Positions 21,936-33,371 of a DNA stretch of 64,000 bases are shown one piece after another. Where the stretch lies: NCBI GenBank assembly GCA_038727135.1, contig JAVYWL010000002.1, positions 128,001-192,000 of the forward strand, read 5' to 3'. The notes beneath the pieces were generated by a model. The model was not told where the DNA came from. It ran no database searches and worked only from the letters and a program-made list of their open reading frames with translations. The DNA is from Candidatus Bathyarchaeia archaeon. Its GTDB lineage: Archaea > Thermoproteota > Bathyarchaeia > Bathyarchaeales > Bathycorpusculaceae. Every line of letters begins with the position of its first letter. The stretch's first letter is position 1. The position numbers and the translations under genes are program-made.

Positions 21936-21979
21936 CCTAAACGCTGAGCCTCAAACACTTAAAGGCAACAGTTAATGAA

Positions 21980-22072
21980 AGCCTCGGGCGGGATTTGAAC
22001 CCGCGACCACCGCCTCTTTGTAGCCCAATAGCTTTACCAAGGCGGTGCCCCACCAGGCTAGGCTACCGAGGC
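21980..22072 (-). tRNA. tRNA-Thr(GGT) with a 19-nt intron at 37/38 (22016-22034); CCA not encoded
   Basis: Acceptor GCCTCGG/CCGAGGC; anticodon arm CCGCC-TTGGTA^intron^A-GGCGG; relaxed BHB. Confidence 0.92.
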
Positions 22073-22177
22073 CCTAACCCCTCAAACACAACATAGACGC
22101 ATAAACGTTTTAAAGGATTTCGCGCTCCCAACAAAACAAACAATTTATAATCTTGAATTTCTTCCAAGCACTATTAG

Positions 22178-22262
22178 GCGGGGGTCGCCAAGCCTGGTCA
22201 AAGGCGCAAGGCTTAGGACCTTGTCCCGTAGGGGTTCGTGGGTTCAAATCCCACCCCCCGCA
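22178..22262 (+). tRNA. tRNA-Leu(TAG); integration target of the adjacent element
   Basis: Acceptor GCGGGGG/CCCCCGC-A; anticodon arm CAAGG-CTTAGGA-CCTTG; long variable arm. Confidence 0.96.
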
Positions 22263-22264
22263 CT
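22241..22264 (+). repeat. attL, GGTTCAAATCCCACCCCCCGCACT
   Basis: 3' end of tRNA-Leu; identical to 33348-33371. Confidence 0.95.
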
Positions 22265-22300
22265 GCTATGTTGAAATTTGAGGGGGGTTCATTCCCGGGC

Positions 22301-23593
22301 TTATTCTTCATAAGCCAGTGGGTCTTTGGGTTTTCTGAAGATTTTGCCGCCATCCTCATATTCGCCTGTTACATATTCGAAGCCGGCTTCTATGAGGGCG
22401 CATGCTTCTTTGACGTTGTGGGCTACTTTTGTTATGTATTCTTGTTCGTTTTTGAAGAGCACTTGTGCGAGGTGGATGTATCGCATGGTGTTTTTGATGT
22501 TTTTGTGGCGTAGGAATTCTTGGACGTGGAATGGGTCTTTGGTGCGCCATGCTTCCATTGTTGCTTTAAAGTGGCGTAGAGTTTTGAAGCTTATTTGCAG
22601 CAGCCTTGGATTCTTGAGTTTTTGGGCTATGCGTTTTCTTTGTAGGGCGAAGTTGCGGTTGTGGTGGTCTATGGGCATGCCGGGATTGGAGAATATTCTG
22701 TCGCCGTATTTTCTGGGCAGGTTGTCGAGCATTTGGGCCAGTTCTTTTGAGATTTTGTAGGTTCTTGATTTTGAGCCTTTTTCTGGTGTTACTCTTATGG
22801 TTCTTGTGGCTTTGTCGTAGTCTGTCCATTTGAGTTGCCATGCTTCTCCTGGGCGCATGGCTGTTTCGAGTAGTAGCTGTAGGAAGCATGCCATTCTTGG
22901 GCTGCATCCGGCTATTAGCTGTTTTATTTCTGTGGGTTGGGGTATGAAGGGTTCTTTTTCAACTCTTTTGTATGTTGGGCGTTGCCATGTTCCGTCGTGC
23001 ATGGCCAGAAATGTTGTGTAGGCTTCGCATGCGAGGTCTTTTCTTCCAGCTGACCATGGCTGTTTGGCTATTACTTGTTTGACGCTTTCCGGGTCGTATA
23101 GGTTTGCGCCTAACTTTGCGAGCCTTTTTATGAGTCTGACTCTGCCTTGGATTGTGGTTTCTGCGTAGCCGTTTCTTTTCATATACCAGATGAAGTCGAC
23201 GATTTTTTGTTGGCTTAGGCTTGCTGAACCCTCCCGCTGGGGCATCTCTTGGCGGGTTTCCACTTCGGCCAAGGTTTGCACCGCCTTATGGGCGGAGGGC
23301 GCTTGGCTTAATGCTTCATAGCTCCCTTGGCAGTTAAAAGGTAAGGCTTTTGGTGAATTTAAAATCTGCCTATCAATTTTCTGAAGGTTTTGAGACTTGT
23401 TTAAACTGTTGAGGCGGGTTTCGCTGAATCTGTAACCACAGATATTGCATAAGTAACGTTGAATGAAGGTGCCATCTGTCAGATAGCGTAGCCCATCTTT
23501 GTAAGTTTTTGTTGAATTGCATAAGGGACAGCTTATGGGCTGATGGTTTTCAACAGCATCGGTTGTTTCCTCAGCCTCGTTCATTGTGGTCAT
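22301..23593 (-). CDS. Tyrosine recombinase/integrase with an N-terminal Zn ribbon (start likely ATG 23593, overlapping the upstream stop)
   Basis: AMRPGEA, KTLRH and LRHKNIKNTMRY catalytic motifs; CPLC...CNIC; adjacent to att. Confidence 0.92.
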   Translation of the reverse strand: MTTMNEAEETTDAVENHQPISCPLCNSTKTYKDGLRYLTDGTFIQRYLCNICGYRFSETRLNSLNKSQNLQKIDRQILNSPKALPFNCQGSYEALSQAPSAHKAVQTLAEVETRQEMPQREGSASLSQQKIVDFIWYMKRNGYAETTIQGRVRLIKRLAKLGANLYDPESVKQVIAKQPWSAGRKDLACEAYTTFLAMHDGTWQRPTYKRVEKEPFIPQPTEIKQLIAGCSPRMACFLQLLLETAMRPGEAWQLKWTDYDKATRTIRVTPEKGSKSRTYKISKELAQMLDNLPRKYGDRIFSNPGMPIDHHNRNFALQRKRIAQKLKNPRLLQISFKTLRHFKATMEAWRTKDPFHVQEFLRHKNIKNTMRYIHLAQVLFKNEQEYITKVAHNVKEACALIEAGFEYVTGEYEDGGKIFRKPKDPLAYEE

Positions 23594-25527
23594 TTCACTC
23601 CGTATTTTCCGATGGCTGGTGCGTCTCTGAGCCAATACTCGTCTTTTAGTAGTTGAATTGTGGGCTGCACTGGAAGGTTGAGTTCTTTTATTTTTGCTGC
23701 CAGAAGGGAGCAGTCGACTAGTCCGTCTTCATCCTTGTTTTCGATTAGCCATGTTTTTAGTTGTTCGAGTTTTTCTGCTATGCTTTTTGTGTCATGGCTG
23801 TCAATCGTGTCAAGGGTTTGTGTTTCTTTTATTGAAACTTGTATCATGTTGTTGTCGAGTTCTTTTATTTCCCAGTTGTCGTTGTTAAATTCTGGTTTTC
23901 TTTGGTTTAGGGTGTAGAAAACCTTTGACACGTTTGACAGGGTTGACATGTTTTGGCTGTAGCGGATGCCCTTGAATGTTACGGCTCTTGTGCCGTTTAT
24001 TTTTGGTCTGTGGTCTATTACTGGGATGTGTTGAGGTAGGTTTTTGAAGAATGTGTCTTTTGTTACGCATGGGATTTTTCTTTCTCTGCAGTAGGCTGCA
24101 AAGGCGTTGTATAGGTCTTGTTTTATGATGAAAGCATCTGAGTCTACTTCAAGGCAGTCCATGACGAAGGCTGCTATTGGGCTGCTTTTACGTATGTAGT
24201 CTTCGCGGATTTCCTCTGTTGTTTTGCTGTGGCTGAATTGTCCCTTTTTCAAAAGCCTTTTTAATGCTGGTAGGACAAGGTTTAGTAGTCCGCTGAGTTC
24301 TTCAGGCGTCGTGAGTTTTTGCAGTATGTATGGGTCTGCTTTGTCGTTTATGAATTGGTTTGGGAAAACTATGATGAGCCATCTGCGGAAGAAGGCGTCT
24401 GTGTCGTCGTAGGCCTCTGGCACTTTGTTGGCTGAAAACAGCAGTTTGGCATAGTTTTCGAAGGTGAAGCTGTTTTGGAATTTGCGCTCCGCTACTATTA
24501 GGTCTCTTCCTGTTAGCATTTTGAAGGTTCCTGTTCGCCAAAGGGCTTTGTCTGGTAGGTCGGCGTAGATATTGGCGAGTTTGTGGTGTAGGTCTGCTTT
24601 TGCGAATCGGTTTTCTTCAAGGTCTTGGAGGCTTCTTCCGCTTACGTTTTCTTTTCCGATGAATGCTTTTACAAGGTTTAGGAAGGTGCTTTTTCCATTC
24701 GAGCCTCCGCCTACAAGCATTAGGGCTTTGGCGATGATGTATTCGCGGTATAGGCAGAAGCCAATAACTTCTAAGAGGATTTGAATGTCCTCTTCTGTGG
24801 CTGTTATTTGGCGTAAGAACTGTTTTATGTTGGGGCAGTCAGCGTTTGGGTTGTATTTTACTGGGATTTTGTTGAAGAACATGTATTCTGGGGTGTAGGG
24901 CTTAAGCTCCATGGTGTTTATGTCTAAAACACCGTTTTCTAAGGGAATCAGGTTTGGCGGCTCCTCTTTCCTGTTAACGTATGTGGAGACTTTGATGTAT
25001 TCGATGACTTCTTCAGCTCTGTTTTTGCGGTATTCCTTGCCCAGCCTTGCCTTGCATTGTTGTTTGATTAGGATTTCGCCGTAGGGTTGGTAGAAGCCAT
25101 CATTGAAAACGTAAACCATATCCGTGTCTTTCATTGTTATGAAGCGGTATTCATTCATGAGTTCTTCTGCCAAAAGTTTTGGGACAAACTTTCCATTGTC
25201 AAAATATTTTTCGGGAAACTCTACAGGCTCTTGTTTTATTGGTTTGGCTAAGGCTTCTTCGAGTTCTTGTCTCTTCTTGGTTTTGGGTTTGGTGCAGTAG
25301 TTTCCGCAATTTTCGCATCTGAAAAATTCTGTTCCAACGTCGTCTACATGGCTTGGTTTTAGGCTTTCGCTACCGCAATAGGGGCAGAACAATTTTTTAA
25401 GAAAGCCTAATTCGTCATATTCACGTTTTGCTGGAAGGTTTTTATTTTGCGATGTGCTGTTTGAGGGCATGGATGCTGAGGTGTTGTGGCTCTGTCCTTG
25501 GGAAGAAACTGAAGTTTGGCTCAGCAT
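23590..25527 (-). CDS. P4/D5-type SF3 helicase (phage/plasmid primase P4 C-terminal family) with an N-terminal Zn finger
   Basis: ENGVLDI (D5_N), GGGSNGKST, FKMLTGRD, FSANKVP and AFFRRW motifs; CPYC...CENC. Confidence 0.92.
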   Translation of the reverse strand: MLSQTSVSSQGQSHNTSASMPSNSTSQNKNLPAKREYDELGFLKKLFCPYCGSESLKPSHVDDVGTEFFRCENCGNYCTKPKTKKRQELEEALAKPIKQEPVEFPEKYFDNGKFVPKLLAEELMNEYRFITMKDTDMVYVFNDGFYQPYGEILIKQQCKARLGKEYRKNRAEEVIEYIKVSTYVNRKEEPPNLIPLENGVLDINTMELKPYTPEYMFFNKIPVKYNPNADCPNIKQFLRQITATEEDIQILLEVIGFCLYREYIIAKALMLVGGGSNGKSTFLNLVKAFIGKENVSGRSLQDLEENRFAKADLHHKLANIYADLPDKALWRTGTFKMLTGRDLIVAERKFQNSFTFENYAKLLFSANKVPEAYDDTDAFFRRWLIIVFPNQFINDKADPYILQKLTTPEELSGLLNLVLPALKRLLKKGQFSHSKTTEEIREDYIRKSSPIAAFVMDCLEVDSDAFIIKQDLYNAFAAYCRERKIPCVTKDTFFKNLPQHIPVIDHRPKINGTRAVTFKGIRYSQNMSTLSNVSKVFYTLNQRKPEFNNDNWEIKELDNNMIQVSIKETQTLDTIDSHDTKSIAEKLEQLKTWLIENKDEDGLVDCSLLAAKIKELNLPVQPTIQLLKDEYWLRDAPAIGKYGVK

Positions 25528-25544
25528 CCATGCTTTCCTCCGTT

Positions 25545-25949
25545 TTAGCTTGTTTTGATTGGTATTCGGAAGTGGGAGTTTTTGCCTGATGAGATGTATT
25601 CGCCGCCTTTGGCTTTGACTATGTCCGCTATTTTTGCAAAGTTTTCTGAGCCTAAGAATTGGCGGGGCTTTATTATGCAGAATCCTTCTCTCTCTTCAAA
25701 AGTGAGTAGCTGCCGCAAATCTTTTGGGAATAATTCGTCTATGCTTTGCGATTTTTGGTCTTCTGCAGTTGTTGTTTTTGGTTTAGATAGCCATCCGTCG
25801 ATTAGTCCTGTCAGATTAGCCTTTGTTACTTCCAGCTCTGCTGGGTCATCTATGAGAACTTCGATTTCATAGTATTCTTTTGTCCATTCTTCGGCTTCGC
25901 TTGGTCTTGAGGTTTTCCCCTTGCCTACTGTTAAACGTTGGAGGTGCAT
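25545..25949 (-). CDS. Hypothetical element protein in the replication operon
   Basis: Tightly packed ORF with an upstream GGAGG; no family recognised. Confidence 0.7.
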   Translation of the reverse strand: MHLQRLTVGKGKTSRPSEAEEWTKEYYEIEVLIDDPAELEVTKANLTGLIDGWLSKPKTTTAEDQKSQSIDELFPKDLRQLLTFEEREGFCIIKPRQFLGSENFAKIADIVKAKGGEYISSGKNSHFRIPIKTS

Positions 25950-25950
25950 T

Positions 25951-26154
25951 TTATTCGCCTCCTTCTTTCCAGAAAATCCAGCTTTTGGAGGTTTTTTGTC
26001 CCTTGATTTTTCCTTCTATTAGCAGTTCAAGGCAGTGTTTTAGGGCTGTGTTCCAGTTTCCAATTTTGCAGGCTTTGCGGATTTTTTCTATGTCTGTTGG
26101 CTTCTTGTTTTTGCTAAGGAAGTCGTAAATTTTTTCTTTGTAGTTTGCGTCCAT
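25951..26154 (-). CDS. Small winged-HTH DNA-binding protein
   Basis: IEKIRKACKIGNWNTALKHCLELLIEGKIKG...SWIFW fits a wHTH pattern. Confidence 0.75.
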   Translation of the reverse strand: MDANYKEKIYDFLSKNKKPTDIEKIRKACKIGNWNTALKHCLELLIEGKIKGQKTSKSWIFWKEGGE

Positions 26155-26223
26155 TTTCTTTTCACGTTTGGAAAATCTTTAAGAAACGCTTAAAATGAAC
26201 TAAGTTTAGACAAGGTTTAGGCC

Positions 26224-26940
26224 ATGCTTGATAGAGAGCAAATTATTTTGGATGTTCTTAAGGATGGGGAGAAGCGTTGGAGAGAGCTTGTTCGCCTTCT
26301 TGTTAGTTCTGGTAAAATGTCGAAGGCTACGCTTTCCTTGAATTTAAAAAAGTTAGAGAAGGAAGGTAAGATTAGGCGCATTACGGATGAGTCTAAAAAG
26401 CCTCCGTTGGTTTTGTATGCGCTTTCCGTTTTTGAGTCGCTGTTAGAGCGGAAGCTTAGAGAAGTTGTTGAGGAGCTTAGACGCGAGTTCTTTTTTCTAA
26501 GAGAACCAACGGTTAAAGAAGTAGCTTTGAGGGTTGGGGAGCTTCCGGAAAAAGTTCGAGAAACGCTTTACAGTATTGCCCCAAAAATTGGTTGGAGGGA
26601 GCAAGAAAAGGATGAAGTAGAGAAAGAGGCTGAAGAAGCTATTAATTTGGCTGGGTGGCTTAAATGGCTTAAAAAAGGCGAACAAAACAGCGAGTTAGCT
26701 AAAATGGCTGAATATGCTTTACAAACGGCTTCTCGCCACACCATTGAGATGGCTGATAAGATTCTTAAAAACTTTCCAGAAATAGTTCCAGAAGCTTATC
26801 CCAGCAGCTCAGGTCCGCACCATTTTGTTGAGGCTGGGCTTGAATGGAATGATGAAACTTTGAAAGCATGGCGCCGTGTTTTCAAAAGCGATCCTCCCGC
26901 TCCTGGCTTGAGTGGATTTTGGATAGTTCCAAGAAGCTAA
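26224..26940 (+). CDS. Winged-HTH regulator, putative element repressor
   Basis: RWRELVR...SKATLSLNLKKLEKEGKI; divergent from the replication operon. Confidence 0.75.
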   Translation: MLDREQIILDVLKDGEKRWRELVRLLVSSGKMSKATLSLNLKKLEKEGKIRRITDESKKPPLVLYALSVFESLLERKLREVVEELRREFFFLREPTVKEVALRVGELPEKVRETLYSIAPKIGWREQEKDEVEKEAEEAINLAGWLKWLKKGEQNSELAKMAEYALQTASRHTIEMADKILKNFPEIVPEAYPSSSGPHHFVEAGLEWNDETLKAWRRVFKSDPPAPGLSGFWIVPRS

Positions 26941-26947
26941 TCCTTTT

Positions 26948-29900
26948 TTACGTGCCGAAGAATCTGTCTAATGAAACATTTTTATCTTCTTGAAGTTGTC
27001 TTTCTGGCTTTTTTGGTGGTTTTAGGCGTGGTTCTTCTTCGCCTTTTATGGCTTCTGGCGTGGCTTCTTCTGCCCTTTGAAGCCTTCTTTTCATCATTGT
27101 TTTAGCCATGATTTTTGCGGTTTTTGCCAGTTCCTTTGGCAGTTTGAGTATTCTCGTTATTTCCATGTCTATTTTCTCGATGACAGTGTCCCAGAGTTTT
27201 TCAATGTTTTCTGCTGTGTCTGCACCGCCCAGTTTTCGCGCTTCAGCCTCAAGCTCATCAAAAAGAGAAGCCAACAGCTCTACATCCTTCTGTTTTAGAG
27301 TTTTAACGTCTAAAATGGGCATTTCTTCAGCATGTTTGACTTCTAATGCTGCAACGCCCATTCCAGTTATGCGAGCATGAGACTCTATATATAATTGCGG
27401 AAAGCTTGAATTTAGATAAGACAATAATGCTTTTGTTTCATTTTCAGTTAATTCGATTTTTGGGATGAAGGTTATAATAGCGTGATATGTTACAACTGGA
27501 TGTTTAGTTAGGATAAACCTTGTTTTATATTGTGATTGATATATTGCCATTATTGGTGCTTTTTCTATTCCGCCGAGGTCATACCATCCATGAAAGAGGT
27601 CTTTCTTTTTTTCTCTTGCTTGGCATGCTAAGGCTTGGCTGCATATTTTTCCGCCGCCCCTTGTGCCTCTTATCATTGTTCGGCATTCTGTTTCTCCCCA
27701 TTTTATATAATCCAAAACGTTTTTGGGCAGTTTCTCGCGTGGTTCATGGCACATGAAAAAGTAGCATGGCGCGCCCTTCTTTTTCAGCTCTTCCCAGTCT
27801 TTTTTGGTGAAGGTGAACCACTTGGCATACCGCGCGCTCGTCAAGGCAGGATAAGCATAGTCTTTTAAGCCATAATGCTGAACCTTACTCTCATCCAAAT
27901 AAAAGAAATCCTTTGCTCCAACATCAGGTCTTTTACCATGCTTAATAGACCAAACAGACCAGAAGCAATTGCCACGGCTTGGCTCAAATAAGTCCCCCAA
28001 CCGAATAGTTCTACCTTTAAGCTTGTCTAAAATAGCATTTGCATCAAATAGAAGGTTTATCCATTTTTGGTCTTTGGGTATTTCCCTCTGCTTTAAAGCT
28101 CTGATTATGTAGCGTTCCTCGTATTTTTCTGGTTTTTCAATAGCCTCTAAAATCTCATCAACCTTGAATGCTTCTGTTTCCGCTATGTCTGCATACATGA
28201 AAACTGTTTGATTATCTTCGCGTTCTTTGTTGTTGCTACACTTTTCAAGTAATATGATGCATGTGCCAATTAACGGCACTGGAAAGACTCTGGCTGAAAT
28301 GTCGATTAAAGCCTTAACCTTAAAATGGTCCAAAAGGAAACGCCCAAAATCAACGCCATAATCCGTTTGAAGCCAACTATCAGAAACAATCATCCCAAGC
28401 CTTCCGCTTTCCCTAAGCATGTCGAAAGCATGCATAATGAAATGAATGTAAATGCCAGGCTCCACACCTCTCTGAACCTGAGCGGTCAAATTATATTCTG
28501 TAAGCAATCTTCCAATGGAATCTTTGATTGCTTCCCTTGTCTTTTCTGGAATTTCCGTCCACCGCGTGTAAGGCGGATTAGCAATCACAGCGTCAAACTT
28601 TGGAATAGCAATTTCACGCTTTATCTCCCCAGCCAAAGTCTTAACAACATAAGGCGAAACAACAGTCTGCTCAGCCTCAACCCTAAAGAAATCAGTATGA
28701 ATCGTGTTCACTTCCGTTGAAGGCGCCCTAATATAACGCGAAGCCAAATTCAAAGCAGTCAAATGCAACGGAAACGGGTTAATATCAAAAGCATAAAGCT
28801 GCCTCAAAATCTCCTTGTGCGCCCTTTCAGTAGGTTCTTTGTAACCTTTTAGCTCAAGTAAACGCTTATATGCCTTAACCAAAAACGTCCCAGAACCACA
28901 GCCAGGGTCCAGAACCTTGTCGTCTGGGCTTCTAACAGCCCATTTAGTAATTAATTCTGCTATGGCTGGCGGCGTATAAAACTGTCCAAGAGCATGCCTC
29001 TCAGCCGCTGGAATAAGCTCCTCATAAATAAAGCCGACAATATCCGAGCCTAAATCCTCAAGCCTATGATGCTCCATATCCTCAATAAACGCGTTAATGC
29101 CCTCAAGCACAAACGGGTCGTCTGGAAGCTCAATCTCATCATAAATCCCCGTGTAAAACACAGGCTCAAAATCGCCAGTAACCTCAACAGCCTTAGCAAA
29201 ATAACGATACAGCAAATCCAAATAGGCTTTAGCATCAGGCGCCGTAATGGGCTTAAGCTTACGTTCGCCCAACTCTTTGAAATGCCTCTCCAAAACCTTA
29301 TAAAAAACAATCTTATTCATGAAAACGTAAGCCATTTCCTTAGCCAACTGAGCCGCATCAGGCTTGTAGCCAACCTCTTCCGCAAACCTTTCGTATTGAG
29401 TCTTAAACTCCTCATCAGTCTTAAGCTTCTTACGAATTAATGGTTCAATAGCCTCCGAAAGCCATGTAACAAAATCTCTAAGCACAACAATAAAGGACCA
29501 GTCAAGCGGAGTAACAGCCACAGGAACCTGCCTATAAAGCCTTGCAACAGTAACAAGAATCTCCTCAGCAAACTCCTCATTAATTGTTATACGCTCTCGC
29601 ACCAAAATCCTATGAGTATCAAAGGAGAATTTCTCGCCAGCCTCAGGCCTTCTAAATAAAGCGAAAACCCTGCCATTAGTAGTGGCAAAATAAGGCGCGC
29701 CAGAATAAATAGCATACCACAAAGCCTGGTCAATTACAACTCTACTCGTGGGCATGATGTTGCGAACAGCCCTGTAATAGCCCTTCTCTTCATACTTCCG
29801 CTTAGTCTCAATAATCAAAAGCGGCTTTTTGCCCTCAGCCAAAATAACCGCCAAATCAGCCCTACGCCCATTAACAGGAAACTGCGTCTTAGGCTCATCA

Positions 29901-30019
29901 AACCTCACACCATCAACAGTAAAGCCCCTCTTCTCCAAAACACTAAAAATATAATGATGAAGCTTACTCTCGACTTCAGCTTCCCAACTCACTGAGCCTA
30001 ACCTCTTCAACCAAATCAA
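26948..30019 (-). CDS. Type IIG restriction-modification enzyme (fused REase, N6-adenine MTase and TRD)
   Basis: ADL...IIETK nuclease motif; GQFYTP; DPGCGSGTF (motif I); NPPY (motif IV). Confidence 0.92.
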   Translation of the reverse strand: MIWLKRLGSVSWEAEVESKLHHYIFSVLEKRGFTVDGVRFDEPKTQFPVNGRRADLAVILAEGKKPLLIIETKRKYEEKGYYRAVRNIMPTSRVVIDQALWYAIYSGAPYFATTNGRVFALFRRPEAGEKFSFDTHRILVRERITINEEFAEEILVTVARLYRQVPVAVTPLDWSFIVVLRDFVTWLSEAIEPLIRKKLKTDEEFKTQYERFAEEVGYKPDAAQLAKEMAYVFMNKIVFYKVLERHFKELGERKLKPITAPDAKAYLDLLYRYFAKAVEVTGDFEPVFYTGIYDEIELPDDPFVLEGINAFIEDMEHHRLEDLGSDIVGFIYEELIPAAERHALGQFYTPPAIAELITKWAVRSPDDKVLDPGCGSGTFLVKAYKRLLELKGYKEPTERAHKEILRQLYAFDINPFPLHLTALNLASRYIRAPSTEVNTIHTDFFRVEAEQTVVSPYVVKTLAGEIKREIAIPKFDAVIANPPYTRWTEIPEKTREAIKDSIGRLLTEYNLTAQVQRGVEPGIYIHFIMHAFDMLRESGRLGMIVSDSWLQTDYGVDFGRFLLDHFKVKALIDISARVFPVPLIGTCIILLEKCSNNKEREDNQTVFMYADIAETEAFKVDEILEAIEKPEKYEERYIIRALKQREIPKDQKWINLLFDANAILDKLKGRTIRLGDLFEPSRGNCFWSVWSIKHGKRPDVGAKDFFYLDESKVQHYGLKDYAYPALTSARYAKWFTFTKKDWEELKKKGAPCYFFMCHEPREKLPKNVLDYIKWGETECRTMIRGTRGGGKICSQALACQAREKKKDLFHGWYDLGGIEKAPIMAIYQSQYKTRFILTKHPVVTYHAIITFIPKIELTENETKALLSYLNSSFPQLYIESHARITGMGVAALEVKHAEEMPILDVKTLKQKDVELLASLFDELEAEARKLGGADTAENIEKLWDTVIEKIDMEITRILKLPKELAKTAKIMAKTMMKRRLQRAEEATPEAIKGEEEPRLKPPKKPERQLQEDKNVSLDRFFGT

Positions 30020-30192
30020 CGCTTAGCCTTAGGTATAGTAAACTTTGACCTTGGCCCCTCATAAACATTAAACTTGGCCTTACATCTCTCACACTCAAAG
30101 CGATTAACCTTATAAAATCTGAACTTCCAAGTTTTCAGCGGCTTAGCCTTAAACTCACCGCCACACACCGGACATTTGACACTTTCACTCAA
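30016..30192 (-). CDS. 58-aa Zn-ribbon micro-protein (not in the ORF track)
   Basis: MSESVKCPVCGGEFKAKPLKTWKFRFYKVNRFECERCKAKFNVYEGPRSKFTIPKAKR; its stop overlaps the RM gene start. Confidence 0.75.
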   Translation of the reverse strand: MSESVKCPVCGGEFKAKPLKTWKFRFYKVNRFECERCKAKFNVYEGPRSKFTIPKAKR

Positions 30193-30200
30193 GACTCAAC

Positions 30201-30227
30201 CCTCGCCAATAATTGTTATTGGCAAGG
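30201..30227. promoter_or_regulatory. Inverted repeat between the RM operon and the RHH gene; possible operator
   Basis: CCTcGCCAATAA-TTG-TTATTGGCaAGG. Confidence 0.45.
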
Positions 30228-30323
30228 CGTAAAAAAACTTTGCAAACAAAAAGGAAATAGTTTATATCTAAAGAATCAAATAGATATCCACAGAAATAAA
30301 GCAACAATTCAAGGTTGAATAAG

Positions 30324-30473
30324 ATGCCTAAATTCATGCAAACCTTAGACGAAGAAATCTACAAGCGGCTTGAACAAATAGCCAAACAACGCGGAATAAC
30401 AGTCCAAGAACTAATCAGAGCCGTCATAATCCCCGACTGGCTACAAAGCCAAAGGCACATAACAAAGGAGTGA
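30324..30473 (+). CDS. 49-aa ribbon-helix-helix (CopG-like) protein (not in the ORF track)
   Basis: MPKFMQTLDEEIYKRLEQIAKQRGITVQELIRAVII matches the RHH pattern. Confidence 0.82.
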   Translation: MPKFMQTLDEEIYKRLEQIAKQRGITVQELIRAVIIPDWLQSQRHITKE

Positions 30474-30480
30474 CAAAACT

Positions 30481-31191
30481 ATGGAATCCGCATTAAAAGT
30501 TTATAGCCAAAGCTGGCGAGACCCAGAAAAAGCCTACAAAGAAAGACGCTTCACCATCCGCCAACAACTGCCAACCATGCCAGCTCATCAGCTCCAAAAC
30601 CGCATCAACAGCCTAAACGAAGAAATCGAAATCTTAAAAACCGAAATAAAAGAATGCGAGGAAGCCATCCGCCAACTAAAACATGGAAAAAAGTCAGAAA
30701 ACGCCTACCGCAAATTCAACATTCATCCATCCCTAACCGACACAACAAGCAACCTCATTGAAAAGTTTAAGGCTGAAATCAAATGGCGAAAACAAACAGC
30801 TAAATGGATTAGGCGGGAAAGAGCCATCTACCTCTGGGAACAAAGACTACGAAAAACAAAAGCCCTAAAACTCCCTATCCTTAAACACCAACAAAAAACT
30901 CTAAGCCAAAGGACCCTCGCCCTTCTCACGCAAATGAAGAGACATGCAGAAGAGCTGCAGAGCTTACATGAAGACTACCAGAAAACAGTCAGCCAATACC
31001 ACGCCCTGAAACAACAAATAAACCAGCTTGACTTCAATGGCCTAACCACCTATGAAAACGAAAGATGGGTGGAAACATCAATTTCAAGTGACCTTTTCCG
31101 AAAGCTGAACGAGGCTTTTAAGTGCATACCGGTGGACCGATGCTTTTCAAATGTAGAGGGGGGAGGGGTAGGTGAAAACGATAGGGGGTAG
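30481..31191 (+). CDS. Coiled-coil hypothetical protein
   Basis: Heptad-rich ORF with a GGAG motif upstream. Confidence 0.7.
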   Translation: MESALKVYSQSWRDPEKAYKERRFTIRQQLPTMPAHQLQNRINSLNEEIEILKTEIKECEEAIRQLKHGKKSENAYRKFNIHPSLTDTTSNLIEKFKAEIKWRKQTAKWIRRERAIYLWEQRLRKTKALKLPILKHQQKTLSQRTLALLTQMKRHAEELQSLHEDYQKTVSQYHALKQQINQLDFNGLTTYENERWVETSISSDLFRKLNEAFKCIPVDRCFSNVEGGGVGENDRG

Positions 31192-31218
31192 GTATAGGTC
31201 AAATTTGAGGCGTAATTT

Positions 31219-31641
31219 ATGCCAAAAGGAAAGCCATGGACAATAGAAGAAGAAAAACAATTAAAGGACCTCGTCTTAAGAGCTTCAAGCCGACAGACAT
31301 AGCCGCCAAAATGGGCAAAACCAAAGACGCAGTTTTAAAGAAAATAGAAAGAATTGGATTAAAAGTAGTCCAACCGCAAAGCATAGGGTCGACTACTACC
31401 TCTGAACTAATGATGCCAAAAGAACTCCCAAGCGTAGAAGAAACCTAAAATTATTAGTTGCAGCCATAAACGCCCTACAAACCCCAAACCTAAGCAAGGC
31501 AGAAATCGCAAGACTACGCACAATGATAACAGCCGTAAAAACCTATAAGAGTTGCTCGCAGACTACATAAACTACCGCCAAATAGAAAACCGCCTACTCG
31601 AAATGGAACAGAAATACACGGAACTTGTAGCAAAAGTTTGA
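31219..31641 (+). pseudogene. Frameshifted HTH protein (three frameshifts; pseudogene or sequencing errors)
   Basis: Stitched reading: MPKGKPWTIEEEKQLKDLV / KPTDIAAKMGKTKDAVLKKIERIGL...ELPSVEET / LKLLVAAINALQTPNL...AVKTY / ELLADYINYRQIENRLLEME. Confidence 0.7.
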
Positions 31642-31830
31642 TAAAAATGGACGATTACGCATCAGCAACCACAATTTACTAGTTTGAGCCAAAAATCTTC
31701 AACCTCGCTACTGCGTATTAAACGAAACAGAACTGCGCTTTAGATTTTGTCAAGTAAAAACAAACATCTTAAAGCACTAAAGGAGTAAAGTAAATATTGT
31801 GAATATTAATTCTATATCAGATACCTTATT

Positions 31831-32244
31831 ATGGGCGTAAAAAGAAAATCAAAAAATGCCAAAAAAGTGATGAGTATGAGCCAGAAAACAAAAGAAGAAT
31901 ACGTTGAATTTCTAAATCTGCTTAGGATTTTCATTTCGATGTTAAGAGAAAACGGAAACTTAATTACAAAAATGGGTGAAATAGAGAAGAAATATCCAAA
32001 AGAATTCAAATTAATGAAAGAATTTTCAACAGAAAAGTTAGACGTTTTCATTGAAAAAGCCCCACCCGAGATTGCGGGCTTATTCCTTAAAATAATGCTT
32101 AGGGCCGCTGCAATCGGCCCCAAAACCAGCAAGGCTATGGAACTATCAGCAGATGAAAAACTTGAACTTGGTAAACAAATAGCCGAACTAGTCAAAGATA
32201 TGGAAAAACTTTTGAAAAAAATAGAGGAGGAGAGTAATAAATGA
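31831..32244 (+). CDS. Hypothetical helical protein (low-GC cargo)
   Basis: ATGA overlap with the next gene. Confidence 0.65.
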   Translation: MGVKRKSKNAKKVMSMSQKTKEEYVEFLNLLRIFISMLRENGNLITKMGEIEKKYPKEFKLMKEFSTEKLDVFIEKAPPEIAGLFLKIMLRAAAIGPKTSKAMELSADEKLELGKQIAELVKDMEKLLKKIEEESNK

Positions 32245-32609
32245 TCAGCGAACCTCAAATATTGTTCACTAACTTATGGTCATCTATAAAGCAAAGAGCA
32301 ATTTCAGTAATATTTCCATCATATCTGCAGCAGTTTATAGAAAAAACATCTCAATATATCTACACAAAATTAACTGGCGCTTTTGCCTTAAGATCTGAAA
32401 TATTGCTGACGCAGAAAATGCTAAAACCAATCATGGAACCTGGCGATTATTATCAGAGGGTATACCTAAGGTCTCTTGTAGGTCTTCCACCAGTTCCCAA
32501 AGCTAAGGCAGAAAAAGTAAGTGTAAAAAATCTTAAAGGTTGTATATCTTGGATCTCTACAAGCAAGATCGACGTGACTGAACTAATTCGAGAAATTCGG
32601 GATAGCTAA
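32241..32609 (+). CDS. Hypothetical protein, possible antitoxin
   Basis: C-terminal DVTELIREIRD resembles archaeal VapB tails; coupled to the PIN gene. Confidence 0.55.
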   Translation: MISEPQILFTNLWSSIKQRAISVIFPSYLQQFIEKTSQYIYTKLTGAFALRSEILLTQKMLKPIMEPGDYYQRVYLRSLVGLPPVPKAKAEKVSVKNLKGCISWISTSKIDVTELIREIRDS

Positions 32610-33259
32610 TGGCAGGTCAGCCATCCACAAGAATCTATGTAGATACAAACATTCTTGTTTCCTATTTATTAGGCGAAAAAGACGAAAATTTCGAGCTTGC
32701 AGAAAGAGTATTTCAAGATGTTGAAAATGGCAAATACACAATGTTAATTTCAAACTTCACTCTTATGGAAACCCTGCATGCATTAAGGACAATAATAACG
32801 AGAAGAAAATATCAAGAACTTAAAAATGGATTGTCTCAAAGTGAGTTGATTAATATCGCAAATTCAAAAGAGTTCGCGCAAACTGTAAATGAAGAAAGCA
32901 TGAAAGCCTTTAAAGTAATTGTAGACAAAATAACAAGCGATTCTCAGCATTTCGTTTTTGAACCTGACACCTTAGTCTATCCTGGAGAGATGTTCTCCAG
33001 AGGCTTGCAGATACTTTTATCAACAACGGGTTTATTTCGTGTTTTTAGATTCCGCTGCCAAAAGTGCAACGGTTACATCAAATGTTCTCGGTGCAAAGTA
33101 AATAGTGAAATAGTCTACAAAGAAATAAATGCACCAGATCTCATTCACCTTTATATAGCTGAAATACTTCAATGCGAACAATTTTTCACAATGGATAAAT
33201 ATTTTGCAAATATTCCCGAAAAGAGTCAGCGAATAAAAATTGAAGTGCTGGAAAAGTAA
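32609..33259 (+). CDS. PIN-domain nuclease with an inserted Cys4 motif
   Basis: YVDTNIL, TLMET, DLIHL and FFTMD motifs; CQKC...CSRC. Confidence 0.85.
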   Translation: MAGQPSTRIYVDTNILVSYLLGEKDENFELAERVFQDVENGKYTMLISNFTLMETLHALRTIITRRKYQELKNGLSQSELINIANSKEFAQTVNEESMKAFKVIVDKITSDSQHFVFEPDTLVYPGEMFSRGLQILLSTTGLFRVFRFRCQKCNGYIKCSRCKVNSEIVYKEINAPDLIHLYIAEILQCEQFFTMDKYFANIPEKSQRIKIEVLEK

Positions 33260-33347
33260 CAACAAATCCTTTTATAAAACGTAAAGAAATAAAAGGGGGA
33301 TTTGCGGGAGATTTTAGATTCTGCTCTGTTTTCTCCAGTTTTAAGCA

Positions 33348-33371
33348 GGTTCAAATCCCACCCCCCGCACT
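33348..33371 (+). repeat. attR, duplicate of the tRNA-Leu 3' end
   Basis: Exact 24-bp match to 22241-22264. Confidence 0.95.

Follow-up and report, generated by a model that had tools for sequence, protein, structure and literature searches.

Bacterial PICIs are compact elements with an end-located integrase, a stand-alone small terminase (TerS) and immunity cargo, and their core genes are alpA/stl, pri-rep and terS/ppi/rpp. P4-like satellites have defence cargo hotspots and are marked by Psu, Sid, Delta, AlpA and an alpha primase-helicase; P4 itself uses the cos site of its helper and has no TerS. In elements of the pRN/pSSVi type, a prim-pol and an SF3 RepA are accompanied by CopG, PlrA and an SSV-type integrase that is split upon integration. 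According to a 2025 preprint, descriptions of satellites in Archaea had been limited to pSSVx and pSSVi, both linked to spindle-shaped viruses (10.1101/2025.02.15.638363); pSSVx/pSSVi, SRCEs and NMV2S combine plasmid-type replication with a virus morphogenesis or packaging piece (10.1101/2025.02.15.638363; 10.64898/2026.08.12.739948). Thaumarchaeal CIEs are tRNA- or gene-targeted integrase elements, mostly <20 kb, that have AEP/SF3-helicase replication genes, wHTH/RHH proteins and RM as cargo and lack hallmarks of virions or conjugation; the term denotes an operational category for which no signature genes exist (Krupovic et al. 2019, PMC6563490).

We analyzed a 64,000-nucleotide stretch (the window) from the MAG of a hot-spring archaeon of the Bathyarchaeia, in which an 11.1-kb insert lies between exact 24-nt direct repeats at the 3' end of a tRNA-Leu(TAG) gene (Table 1). 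Like SaPI-type PICIs, elements of this kind are 7-12 kb long and have an integrase at one end, a putative divergent regulator pair, their own replication helicase, accessory immunity genes and a putative stand-alone small-terminase homologue without TerL, capsid or tail genes. Unlike PICIs, they have an archaeal host, show no detected sequence relation to PICI genes, and have integrase and helicase in one operon with a small regulator. Searches of the element with Pfam and PHROGs detected no homologues of Stl/AlpA-type regulators, Cpm, Ppi or Rpp, and with a Bathyarchaeia host and no core family match it falls outside the PICIs sensu stricto (the bacterial families of SatelliteFinder). With P4-like satellites it shares a size of ~11 kb and the use of an integrase and a D5_N/SF3 'P4-family' helicase as replicase, but its helicase has no primase domain and Psu, Sid, Delta and AlpA gave no match (Pfam, PHROGs); the D5_N/SF3 helicase part is all that it has of the P4-like set. 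RHH and SF3 proteins are present as in the pRN/pSSVi type, but there is no prim-pol and the integrase is intact, placing it outside that type as well.

The systems pSSVx/pSSVi, haloarchaeal SRCEs and Asgard NMV2S resemble the element in joining a plasmid-type replication module (helicase-primase, Arc/CopG-like RHH) to a borrowed virus module. They differ in that pSSVx/pSSVi and SRCEs, which encode an AAA+ ATPase or MCP, exploit spindle-shaped viruses, and in that NMV2S is a 3.8-kb circle; none is described with a small terminase, whereas the module here is TerS-like and of the kind found in head-tailed viruses, and the element is integrated in the chromosome at a tRNA. An archaeal element with an orphan small terminase was not found in the literature searched. 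Also close is the CIE of PMC6563490, which is likewise tRNA-integrated with an integrase, SF3 replication, wHTH/RHH proteins and RM cargo. The element is an archaeal CIE (integrated, with integrase and without virus or conjugation hallmark) as long as its TerS-like gene is not counted as a viral hallmark; the Bathyarchaeia family differs by adding this conserved gene and a backbone of int, SF3 helicase, orf134 and a small regulator.

Table 1. Features of the tRNA-Leu-integrated element (positions in the window)
Feature	Position	Strand	Basis or remark
tRNA-Leu(TAG), integration target	22178..22263	+	ARAGORN and sequence; 3' end is attL
attL, exact 24-nt direct repeat	22241..22264		Repeat search
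Tyrosine integrase, 444 aa from leftmost start	22301..23635	-	PF00589 5.9e-21, phrog_1 2.9e-29
Replication protein: N-terminal zinc ribbon, D5_N, SF3 (D5/P4-type) helicase	23590..25527	-	Pfam/PHROGs
orf134, two-domain protein	25545..25949	-	Directly upstream of the Rep gene in copies having it
67-aa protein, putative small DNA-binding regulator	25951..26154	-	Leads the leftward operon
Putative divergent control region between two regulator genes	26155..26223		Short imperfect inverted repeats
238-aa wHTH (HxlR/MarR-like) regulator	26224..26940	+	PF01638 8.8e-7; divergent from replication-integration operon
Type IIG RM enzyme, 1023 aa	26948..30019	-	Pfam and PADLOC
58-aa zinc-ribbon protein	30016..30192	-	Own stop overlaps RM start; conserved in L003, L034
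Candidate operator, palindrome with 12-nt arms	30201..30227		92% complementary, 3-nt loop
RHH52, 52-aa ribbon-helix-helix (CopG/Arc-like)	30315..30473	+	RHH_1 1e-5; Arc-like PHROGs
cc236, 236-aa coiled-coil protein	30481..31191	+	Conserved beside TerS-like gene
Small-terminase-like pseudogene, Myb/GcrA-type HTH and coiled coil	31219..31641	+	Three 1-nt deletions
Variable cargo, three genes (137 aa, 122 aa, 216-aa PIN protein)	31831..33259	+	Low G+C
PIN-domain protein, 216 aa, Cys-rich C-terminus	32609..33259	+	PIN 9e-8
attR, exact 24-nt direct repeat	33348..33371		Repeat search

By calculation, exact 24-nt repeat pairs are expected by chance at ~5e-7 pairs per 16 kb. The flanking repeats together with an empty site in relatives demonstrate site-specific integration: congeners G013 (L017) and G006 (L018) have a single att copy without the insert, indicating real mobility. 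Other elements fill the same tRNA in G003 and G005. Since G003 is a 98%-identical congener with a different element at tRNA-Leu, turnover at the site is recent. Between the copies in the host genome G000 and in G009, which belong to two species, dS was 0.04-0.10 for the element genes int, orf134 and cc236, and the reverse gyrase gene next to the element gave 0.85. The element is ~tenfold less diverged than its own flanks, which points to recent horizontal spread between species. Family-wide, insertion into tRNA genes is site-specific and mediated by the tyrosine integrase.

When 80 related metagenome contigs were tested for circularity, none had ends that overlapped exactly by 20 nt or more. 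The four runs that were mapped carry a G009-like variant, not the exact variant of the window, and no back-joint was present among the joints listed for them; three consist of contigs only, and the raw-read run (X19) had practically no coverage, confined to tRNAs. Depth over the PIN module was nil in X1 and X19, with mere traces in the contig runs X3 and X7. Skip-joints from tRNA-Leu to tRNA-Ala had sides of 21-27 nt and may derive from other organisms. None of the 18 listed runs contains more than 0.41 of the words sampled. [quoted passage not shown]

The element has its own integrase and its own replication helicase. The integrase gene is not split upon integration and has a dN/dS of 0.15-0.23; that of the helicase is 0.07-0.14. 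The helicase matches D5_N (3.9e-17), DUF5906 (7.3e-24), Pox_D5 (1.3e-6) and phrog_864 (1.2e-109), and its nearest IMG/VR relative shows 39% identity. No primase domain accompanies the zinc ribbon in this protein; among relatives, L021 has a separate AEP gene, and the Rep ORFs of L022 and L010 are longer, at 831 and 888 aa. Broken helicase genes occur in G009, G012 and G002. Scans of the ORFs with Pfam and PHROGs revealed no capsid, portal, tail or lysis genes, and TerL, relaxase and T4SS families were also absent at E<=0.01. The exact att repeats, intact integrase, SF3 helicase and lack of capsid, portal, large terminase, relaxase and T4SS genes that the first-pass annotation had reported were thus all borne out.

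The protein orf134 has 1129 homologues (alignment A2) without a Pfam domain and occupies the same position in L001, L003, L034, L035 and L026. Its model (pLDDT 75.7) had no match in the PDB (best E 0.13), a PDB sequence search gave nothing usable, and its C-terminal domain had a single IMG/VR match, in a different protein and context. We infer that orf134 is a replication accessory or origin-binding protein. Comparison with the AEP primase and with the 157-aa ORF that holds the corresponding position in L021 showed orf134 to be related to neither.

Of the wHTH pair said to head this operon, one partner is supported. The two genes are divergent, and the 238-aa protein is HxlR-like; the 67-aa protein has no HTH profile or family match (Pfam, PHROGs), and its PDB sequence search gave nothing usable. 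It is conserved at 74-90% in L001, L021, L034 and L035. In G009, other genes take the place of the 238-aa wHTH gene.

Two defence cargos had been claimed as well, and Pfam and PADLOC uphold the type IIG RM enzyme (N6_Mtase 3.5e-27, Eco57I 3.3e-19, HSDR_N-like N-terminus; MTase_II 1.4e-44, REase_MTase_IIG 7.6e-31), which is 88-89% identical to the copies in L003 and L034. The PIN module had no PADLOC match, so its defence role is putative. Its G+C is 0.35-0.36, as against 0.41-0.48 elsewhere in the element, and it is missing from L001, L003 and L034. The candidate operator lies where the RM operon and the RHH operon diverge. In the latter, the described series of RHH, coiled-coil and HTH genes holds for RHH52 and cc236; its third member is not a single ORF. 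Homologues of cc236 are present in L003, L034, L035, L021 and L024, and its dN/dS is 0.22. No homologue was found in IMG/VR, the PDB sequence search gave nothing usable, and the ESM Atlas returned generic coiled coils only (scores <=0.80). Weak coiled-coil matches of cc236 (E>=6.8e-4) provided the sole structural names in scans of the element. The packaging or scaffold match envisaged for orf134 and cc236 was not obtained for either.

The third gene reads in three frames owing to three 1-nt deletions relative to the intact L003 homologue. Programmed frameshifting is ruled out by the three separate deletions and by homologues intact in one frame (144-150 aa in sister elements); an assembly error is unlikely, given the intact long ORFs next to it. 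The family has at least 840 members and was previously unnamed. Full-length relatives of an intact homologue (P0001) were found at 42-54% identity in seven IMG/VR tailed-virus loci, and in all seven the gene is directly upstream of, or overlaps, a TerL gene (Terminase_6N/6C and phrog_2, 2.7e-43). The same adjacency was detected in 22 of the best 30 Bathyarchaeia genome loci (201 genomes of the order), giving 29/37 TerL-linked loci altogether. Thus, the family occupies the small-terminase position of tailed (pro)viruses. A TerS role is suggested by this gene position and by architecture: in the model, a three-helix HTH at the N-terminus leads into long helical hairpins.

The TerS fold was not confirmed by Foldseek. 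No match was significant: against the PDB, the best E was 0.036 (the HTH protein Pax6), with the phage G20c small terminase at E 0.21 among many HTH proteins, and against BFVD, the best E was 0.0024, to generic HTH proteins. Profile searches recognized a GcrA/Myb HTH only. One source labels the copy in G009 a 'GcrA family cell cycle regulator', so the protein could act on late genes as a regulator. Complex prediction with viral TerL (A7) and the TerS-like protein (A6), run without controls, scored 0.00 and is given no weight in either direction.

At least three kinds of element 7-12 kb long, all with an integrase and inserted at a tRNA, have copies without TerL. No TerL was detected, including by tblastn with TerL, in the window, L003, L034, L035, L233 (7.07 kb, at tRNA-Pro, with exact 20-nt repeats) or L235 (~11.7 kb at tRNA-His). 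The orphan state is recurrent, and with a dN/dS of 0.21 between the L003 and L034 copies it is under purifying selection. In the tree of the family, a separate starred lineage is made up of L003 and L034. The L035 element, whose helicase is 79% identical to that of the window, has a TerS-like gene of the other deep clade, which fits module swapping; its cc236 and TerS-like protein are 32-36% identical to those here. The TerS-like gene is missing in the backbone relatives L001, L032, L042 and L049. Copies also decay, the G009 element carrying frameshifts too. These elements carry an operon of RHH, coiled-coil and small-terminase-like genes with swappable cargo (type IIG RM, PIN), and are best explained as integrative, self-replicating elements of hot-spring Bathyarchaeia. 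Replication would start from the D5-like SF3 helicase module under the divergent regulator pair.

A candidate helper resides in the host chromosome. A cluster at G000:C1:160.1-178.7 kb shows synteny with the IMG/VR virus L115; its genes include those for major head, tail and TerL proteins, the TerL being truncated. The element's replication module is unlike that of L115. The TerL family of the cluster is present in 11/14 genomes of the genus, and in three species that were compared, the cluster occupies one and the same place on the chromosome. In the TerS position, the resident clusters have a non-homologous 132-aa gene; within the genus, the TerS-like family occurs only in the element (2/14 genomes).

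We propose, with a probability of about 0.5, that the family consists of PICI-like satellites of archaeal tailed viruses and that the window holds a partly decayed copy. On the model of SaPI/PICI logic, late-gene expression by a head-tailed virus or a resident head-tail cluster would be the trigger upon which the element excises and replicates; its TerS-like protein would recruit the large terminase of the helper to element DNA, and the 7-12-kb element would spread in helper-made capsids. The window copy is probably stranded, because its TerS-like gene is dead and the TerL of the host cluster is truncated, and is probably retained for RM and other cargo, with integrase, helicase and regulators still intact. 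A satellite had already been suggested by the first-pass annotation only from layout and missing virion genes, both of which fit any cryptic integrated element equally. The suggestion now gains from a TerS-position family without TerL in small tRNA elements, and from a head-tail cluster in the same genome; against it stand the broken window copy, the unconfirmed TerS fold, and the fact that the contigs and runs searched showed no excised or packaged form.

The main rival, to which we assign a minority but substantial share of the probability, is an integrative plasmid or cryptic integrated element that inserts, replicates and persists on account of its RM and toxin-like cargo. The HTH/coiled-coil protein would then be a factor for transcription or partition that viruses also possess, and transfer, if any, would occur via vesicles, cell contact or chance transduction. 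Integrase, SF3 helicase, wHTH/RHH and RM are the gene set given for thaumarchaeal CIEs in PMC6563490. The GcrA/Myb-only profile matches and the GcrA label suit this rival, as do the many backbone relatives without the TerS-like gene and the absence of the family, judged by its helicase, from IMG/VR. It leaves unexplained why purifying selection maintains a family otherwise located beside TerL in a number of unrelated small integrase elements, and how near-identical copies moved between species so diverged in their flanks without any transfer genes.

Loss of mobility would instead make the locus a domesticated defence island providing chromosomal RM (perhaps PIN) immunity. An intact RM gene beside a broken TerS-like gene and the truncated host TerL are consistent with this, but purifying selection acts on the integrase, helicase and regulators, all of them intact, and the other element in G003 implies recent turnover; such an island also describes the present state of one copy and not the nature of the family. 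We regard it as improbable. More improbable still is a decayed tailed provirus that lost its structural genes and kept the TerS-like gene as a relic. The missing TerL and the frameshifts in the window and G009 copies could be so read, and in PMC6563490 a Thaumarchaeota CIE with orphan terminase genes is interpreted as a possible relic. However, the compact TerL-less layout recurs in the distant L035 and in L233 and L235 with a dN/dS of ~0.2, Pfam, PHROGs and tblastn found no head, tail or portal gene fragments, the replication module differs from that of the syntenic virus, and the att repeats enclose 11.1 kb only.

Within the preferred satellite interpretation, a more specific version is put forward tentatively: Bathyarchaeia would hold PICI-like satellites, the first for head-tailed viruses of Archaea, with swapped TerS, cc236 and a resident helper. 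In this version, 7-12-kb tRNA-integrated replicons would keep an orphan TerS, swapped between elements to suit different helpers, and it would divert helper TerL and capsids to element DNA. In addition, cc236 may redirect capsid size or assembly, and the helper in the genus may be the resident head-tail gene cluster, which could be GTA-like. Intact copies for biochemical tests are of the L034 type, with G009 for the TerS-like gene, together with the resident TerL. If these interpretations are true, members of the unnamed family would be identified as small terminases of tailed viruses of Bathyarchaeia. Packaging of the elements by tailed archaeal viruses would extend the SaPI/PICI strategy across the domain boundary and would provide a means by which RM and other immunity genes recently spread between species of uncultured hot-spring archaea.

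The element lies in the 3' end of a tRNA-Leu(TAG) gene called by ARAGORN. The first-pass annotation had claimed exact att repeats, and these are present: the left 24-nt copy comprises the final 23 bases of the tRNA plus 1 nt, and the identical right copy lies 11,107 bp downstream. By our own arithmetic, chance alone would give about 5e-7 such exact pairs over the 16 kb searched. Among the 14 genomes of the genus, two species (G013, locus L017; G006, locus L018) have an empty site, with a single att copy behind tRNA-Leu followed by the tRNA-Ala region. ARAGORN also called a 95-nt "tRNA-Phe(aaa)" at window positions 21979-22073, which is probably an intron-bearing tRNA with a misread identity; the homologous places in G003 and G005 were called "???".

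Features of the element and its target site
Feature	Position	Strand	Note
tRNA-Leu(TAG)	22178-22263
attL	22241-22264
tyrosine integrase	22301-23635	-	PF00589 5.9e-21
zinc-ribbon/D5_N/SF3 helicase (Rep)	23590-25527	-	phrog_864 1.2e-109; without primase domain
orf134	25545-25949	-	no family match
67-aa protein	25951-26154	-	no family match
HxlR-like wHTH protein, divergent	26224-26940	+
type IIG RM enzyme, with overlapping 58-aa zinc-ribbon gene	26948-30019 (RM)	-
RHH protein	30315-30473	+
cc236, 236-aa coiled-coil protein	30481-31191	+
TerS-like gene	31219-31641		reads in three frames
three genes, the last encoding a PIN-domain protein	31831-33259	+	G+C 0.35-0.36, below the 0.41-0.48 of the rest
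attR	33348-33371

The same tRNA is a hotspot. In G003, whose flanks are 96-98% identical to those of the window, it holds a different element of 7.8 kb with 42-nt repeats, and in G005 another of 8.0 kb. These unrelated elements (L016 on G003:C7, 3959-11841; L019 on G005:C1, 2846-10904) have 42-44-nt repeats and an integrase with 41% identity; G005 carries an additional 3.66-kb insert between 43-nt tRNA-Ala repeats (L019 10992-14691). The window's own genome (G000) holds many integrated elements. At least eight more places match the element integrase at 28-55% identity, several of them beside tRNA genes. A second small element (L026, approximately G000:C3:26485-32028) lies at tRNA-Leu(CAG), with no att repeat of 18 nt or longer found. 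It has the order regulator, orf134-like gene, 855-aa protein, integrase, and its products are a 241-aa MarR-like protein, a 65-aa protein, a 140-aa orf134-like protein, the 855-aa protein and the integrase. The 855-aa protein matched no Pfam family and is a candidate new replicase.

The intact integrase and SF3 helicase claimed from sequence were confirmed by profile matches, and Pfam and PHROGs gave no hit among the element genes to families of capsid, portal, terminase, tail, relaxase or T4SS proteins. Of the claimed divergent wHTH pair, the plus-strand member stood; the label is unsupported for the 67-aa partner because it matched no family. We found 1129 orf134 homologues, none with a Pfam domain, and the orf134 model (pLDDT 75.7) matched no solved structure; searches with orf134 and cc236 returned no match to packaging or scaffold proteins. 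Since orf134 adjoins the Rep gene wherever it is present, it may be a replication accessory protein. Its C-terminal domain defines a family that is very large in archaea and lacks a Pfam model, and it is found joined to two or more distinct N-terminal domains; two copies lie on a 6.2-kb contig of G000 (C5, L027).

The helicase was present in 11 of 61 related genomes, with internal stops in several (G009:C3, G012 and G002). A profile scan of metagenome contigs retained 80 loci with helicases 35-88% identical, and the window-type integrase comes after the helicase in 21 of them. MAGs with close helicase relatives are titled Candidatus Bathyarchaeia or Bathyarchaeales, and the sequencing runs that have words in common with the element come from hot-spring metagenomes. 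Loci L001, L034 and L035 share with the window's element, at 73-90% identity, a backbone of integrase, helicase, orf134 and the 67-aa gene, to which the 238-aa wHTH gene often belongs; backbone genes are under purifying selection (dN/dS 0.07-0.23). Modules are exchangeable: L034 has a different integrase and lies beside tRNA-Ser, other genes stand in G009 where the window has the PIN module and the 238-aa regulator, L021 encodes an AEP primase as a separate gene, and the Rep ORFs of L022 (831 aa) and L010 (888 aa) are longer. The gene order of L026 is a further instance of such exchange.

A sister copy occupies the same site in G009 (L003/L020; L002 is the same population). Synonymous divergence between G000 and G009 is 0.098 for the integrase, 0.096 for orf134 and 0.040 for cc236, far below the 0.85 of the reverse gyrase gene beside the element, showing that the element entered both species long after their split. 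The RM gene has a dS of 0.51, and the element is therefore mosaic. The G009 copy is followed, just past its attR, by another integrase gene (L003 770-1696, G009:C3; 308 aa, 53% identical), which suggests a tandem or remnant element.

The TerS-like gene had been read as a single ORF. Compared with the G009 copy, a single open frame of 150 aa, it has three 1-nt deletions, each within a short G or C run. L034 and L035 also have intact homologues, of 144 and 205 aa, and the gene always stands behind the RHH and cc236 genes; it is constrained (dN/dS 0.21, L003 versus L034). The only profile match is an N-terminal GcrA/Myb-type HTH, and in the predicted model a linker connects a three-helix HTH to long helical hairpins. 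An IMG/VR scan with the TerS-like alignment gave seven tailed-virus loci with full-length relatives (42-54% identity), and in 7/7 the gene immediately precedes or overlaps one for the large terminase, TerL (Terminase_6N 6.5e-15, phrog_2 2.7e-43); in L115, tail and head genes lie upstream as well. The TerL of L116 (4607-7576) has an intein inside its ATPase domain (Intein_splicing 4.7e-10). The family occurs in 51 of 201 genomes of the order, with a long TerL match immediately downstream in 22 of the best 30 loci, a TerL fragment in one and no TerL in seven (two at contig ends). Gene position and the predicted model thus match a canonical small terminase in location and architecture, and we infer a TerS role for the family. 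Fold searches gave no confirmation of a TerS fold. The family has at least 840 homologues, and no source names it a small terminase among the 120 that were listed.

TerL is absent from every copy of the element family. Other TerL-less loci include a 7.07-kb insert at tRNA-Pro with exact 20-nt repeats (L233, G166), encoding an integrase, a helicase-type gene and, at the far end, a 200-aa TerS-like gene; L235 (G201), where about 11.7 kb is inserted at tRNA-His and includes genes for an integrase and a TerS-like protein of 208 aa; and L234, adjoining tRNA-Ser. A tree of 33 TerS-like proteins has two deep clades (support 100/99); it omits L227-L229, which coincide with L233-L235, as well as the fragment L223 and five loci that yielded no ORF. 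L003 and L034 form their own lineage, starred in the tree, next to a mainly virus-borne clade; L035, L233, L235 and L234 fall in the other clade, together with one TerL-adjacent sequence. L035 has the window's backbone (helicase 79%, orf134 81%), indicating that the TerS-like gene was swapped within one element family.

Head-tail genes are present in the same genome. G000:C1:160.1-178.7 kb (L199, L200) is syntenic with virus L115 (protein identity 36-69%) and encodes major head, tail and minor tail proteins, TerL and an MTase. The cluster's chromosomal position is shared by three species (G000; G003:C10, L237 and L238; G009:C14, L239). About 0.98 kb is missing in G000, cutting TerL to 263 aa; cluster-type TerL occurs in 11/14 genomes of the genus, eight of which have it as a full-length open frame. 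The TerS-like family occurs in only 2/14, each time inside the element, and the gene at the TerS position of the cluster is unrelated to it. The cluster is possibly an old provirus; alternatively, it may be a GTA-like particle system that the host has domesticated.

The best explanation, to which we give a probability of about one half, is a PICI-like satellite family. It draws on att sites, integrase, own replicase, regulator pair, orphan TerS homologue, immunity cargo and lack of virion genes, as well as on rapid spread between species without transfer genes; the data show integration, mobility, family structure, TerS-position homology, selection and related head-tail genes. The chief competing explanation is a cryptic integrative plasmid, like those that PMC6563490 groups as CIE in Thaumarchaeota. 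Against the satellite reading stand the broken TerS-like gene of the window copy and the broken helicase of G009. Neither excised nor packaged forms appeared in 80 metagenome contigs, three contig runs and one raw run almost without coverage, and the family was not in IMG/VR by helicase (best match 39%) or cc236. The TerS-like protein could be a regulator instead.

Only pSSVx and pSSVi were known archaeal satellites according to 10.1101/2025.02.15.638363, which adds plasmid-derived satellites of spindle-shaped viruses; a 3.8-kb Asgard satellite is proposed in 10.64898/2026.08.12.739948. The available text of PMC10848311, on Bathyarchaeia viruses, describes no such element. Literature searches outside supplementary tables, which may hold annotations, turned up no orphan small terminase in any archaeal element, and the sole "PICI-like" mention in an archaeal paper concerns Vibrio. 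As PICI-like satellites, elements of this family would use their TerS-like protein as a small terminase, by which a helper TerL would be recruited to the element and its DNA would be encapsidated.
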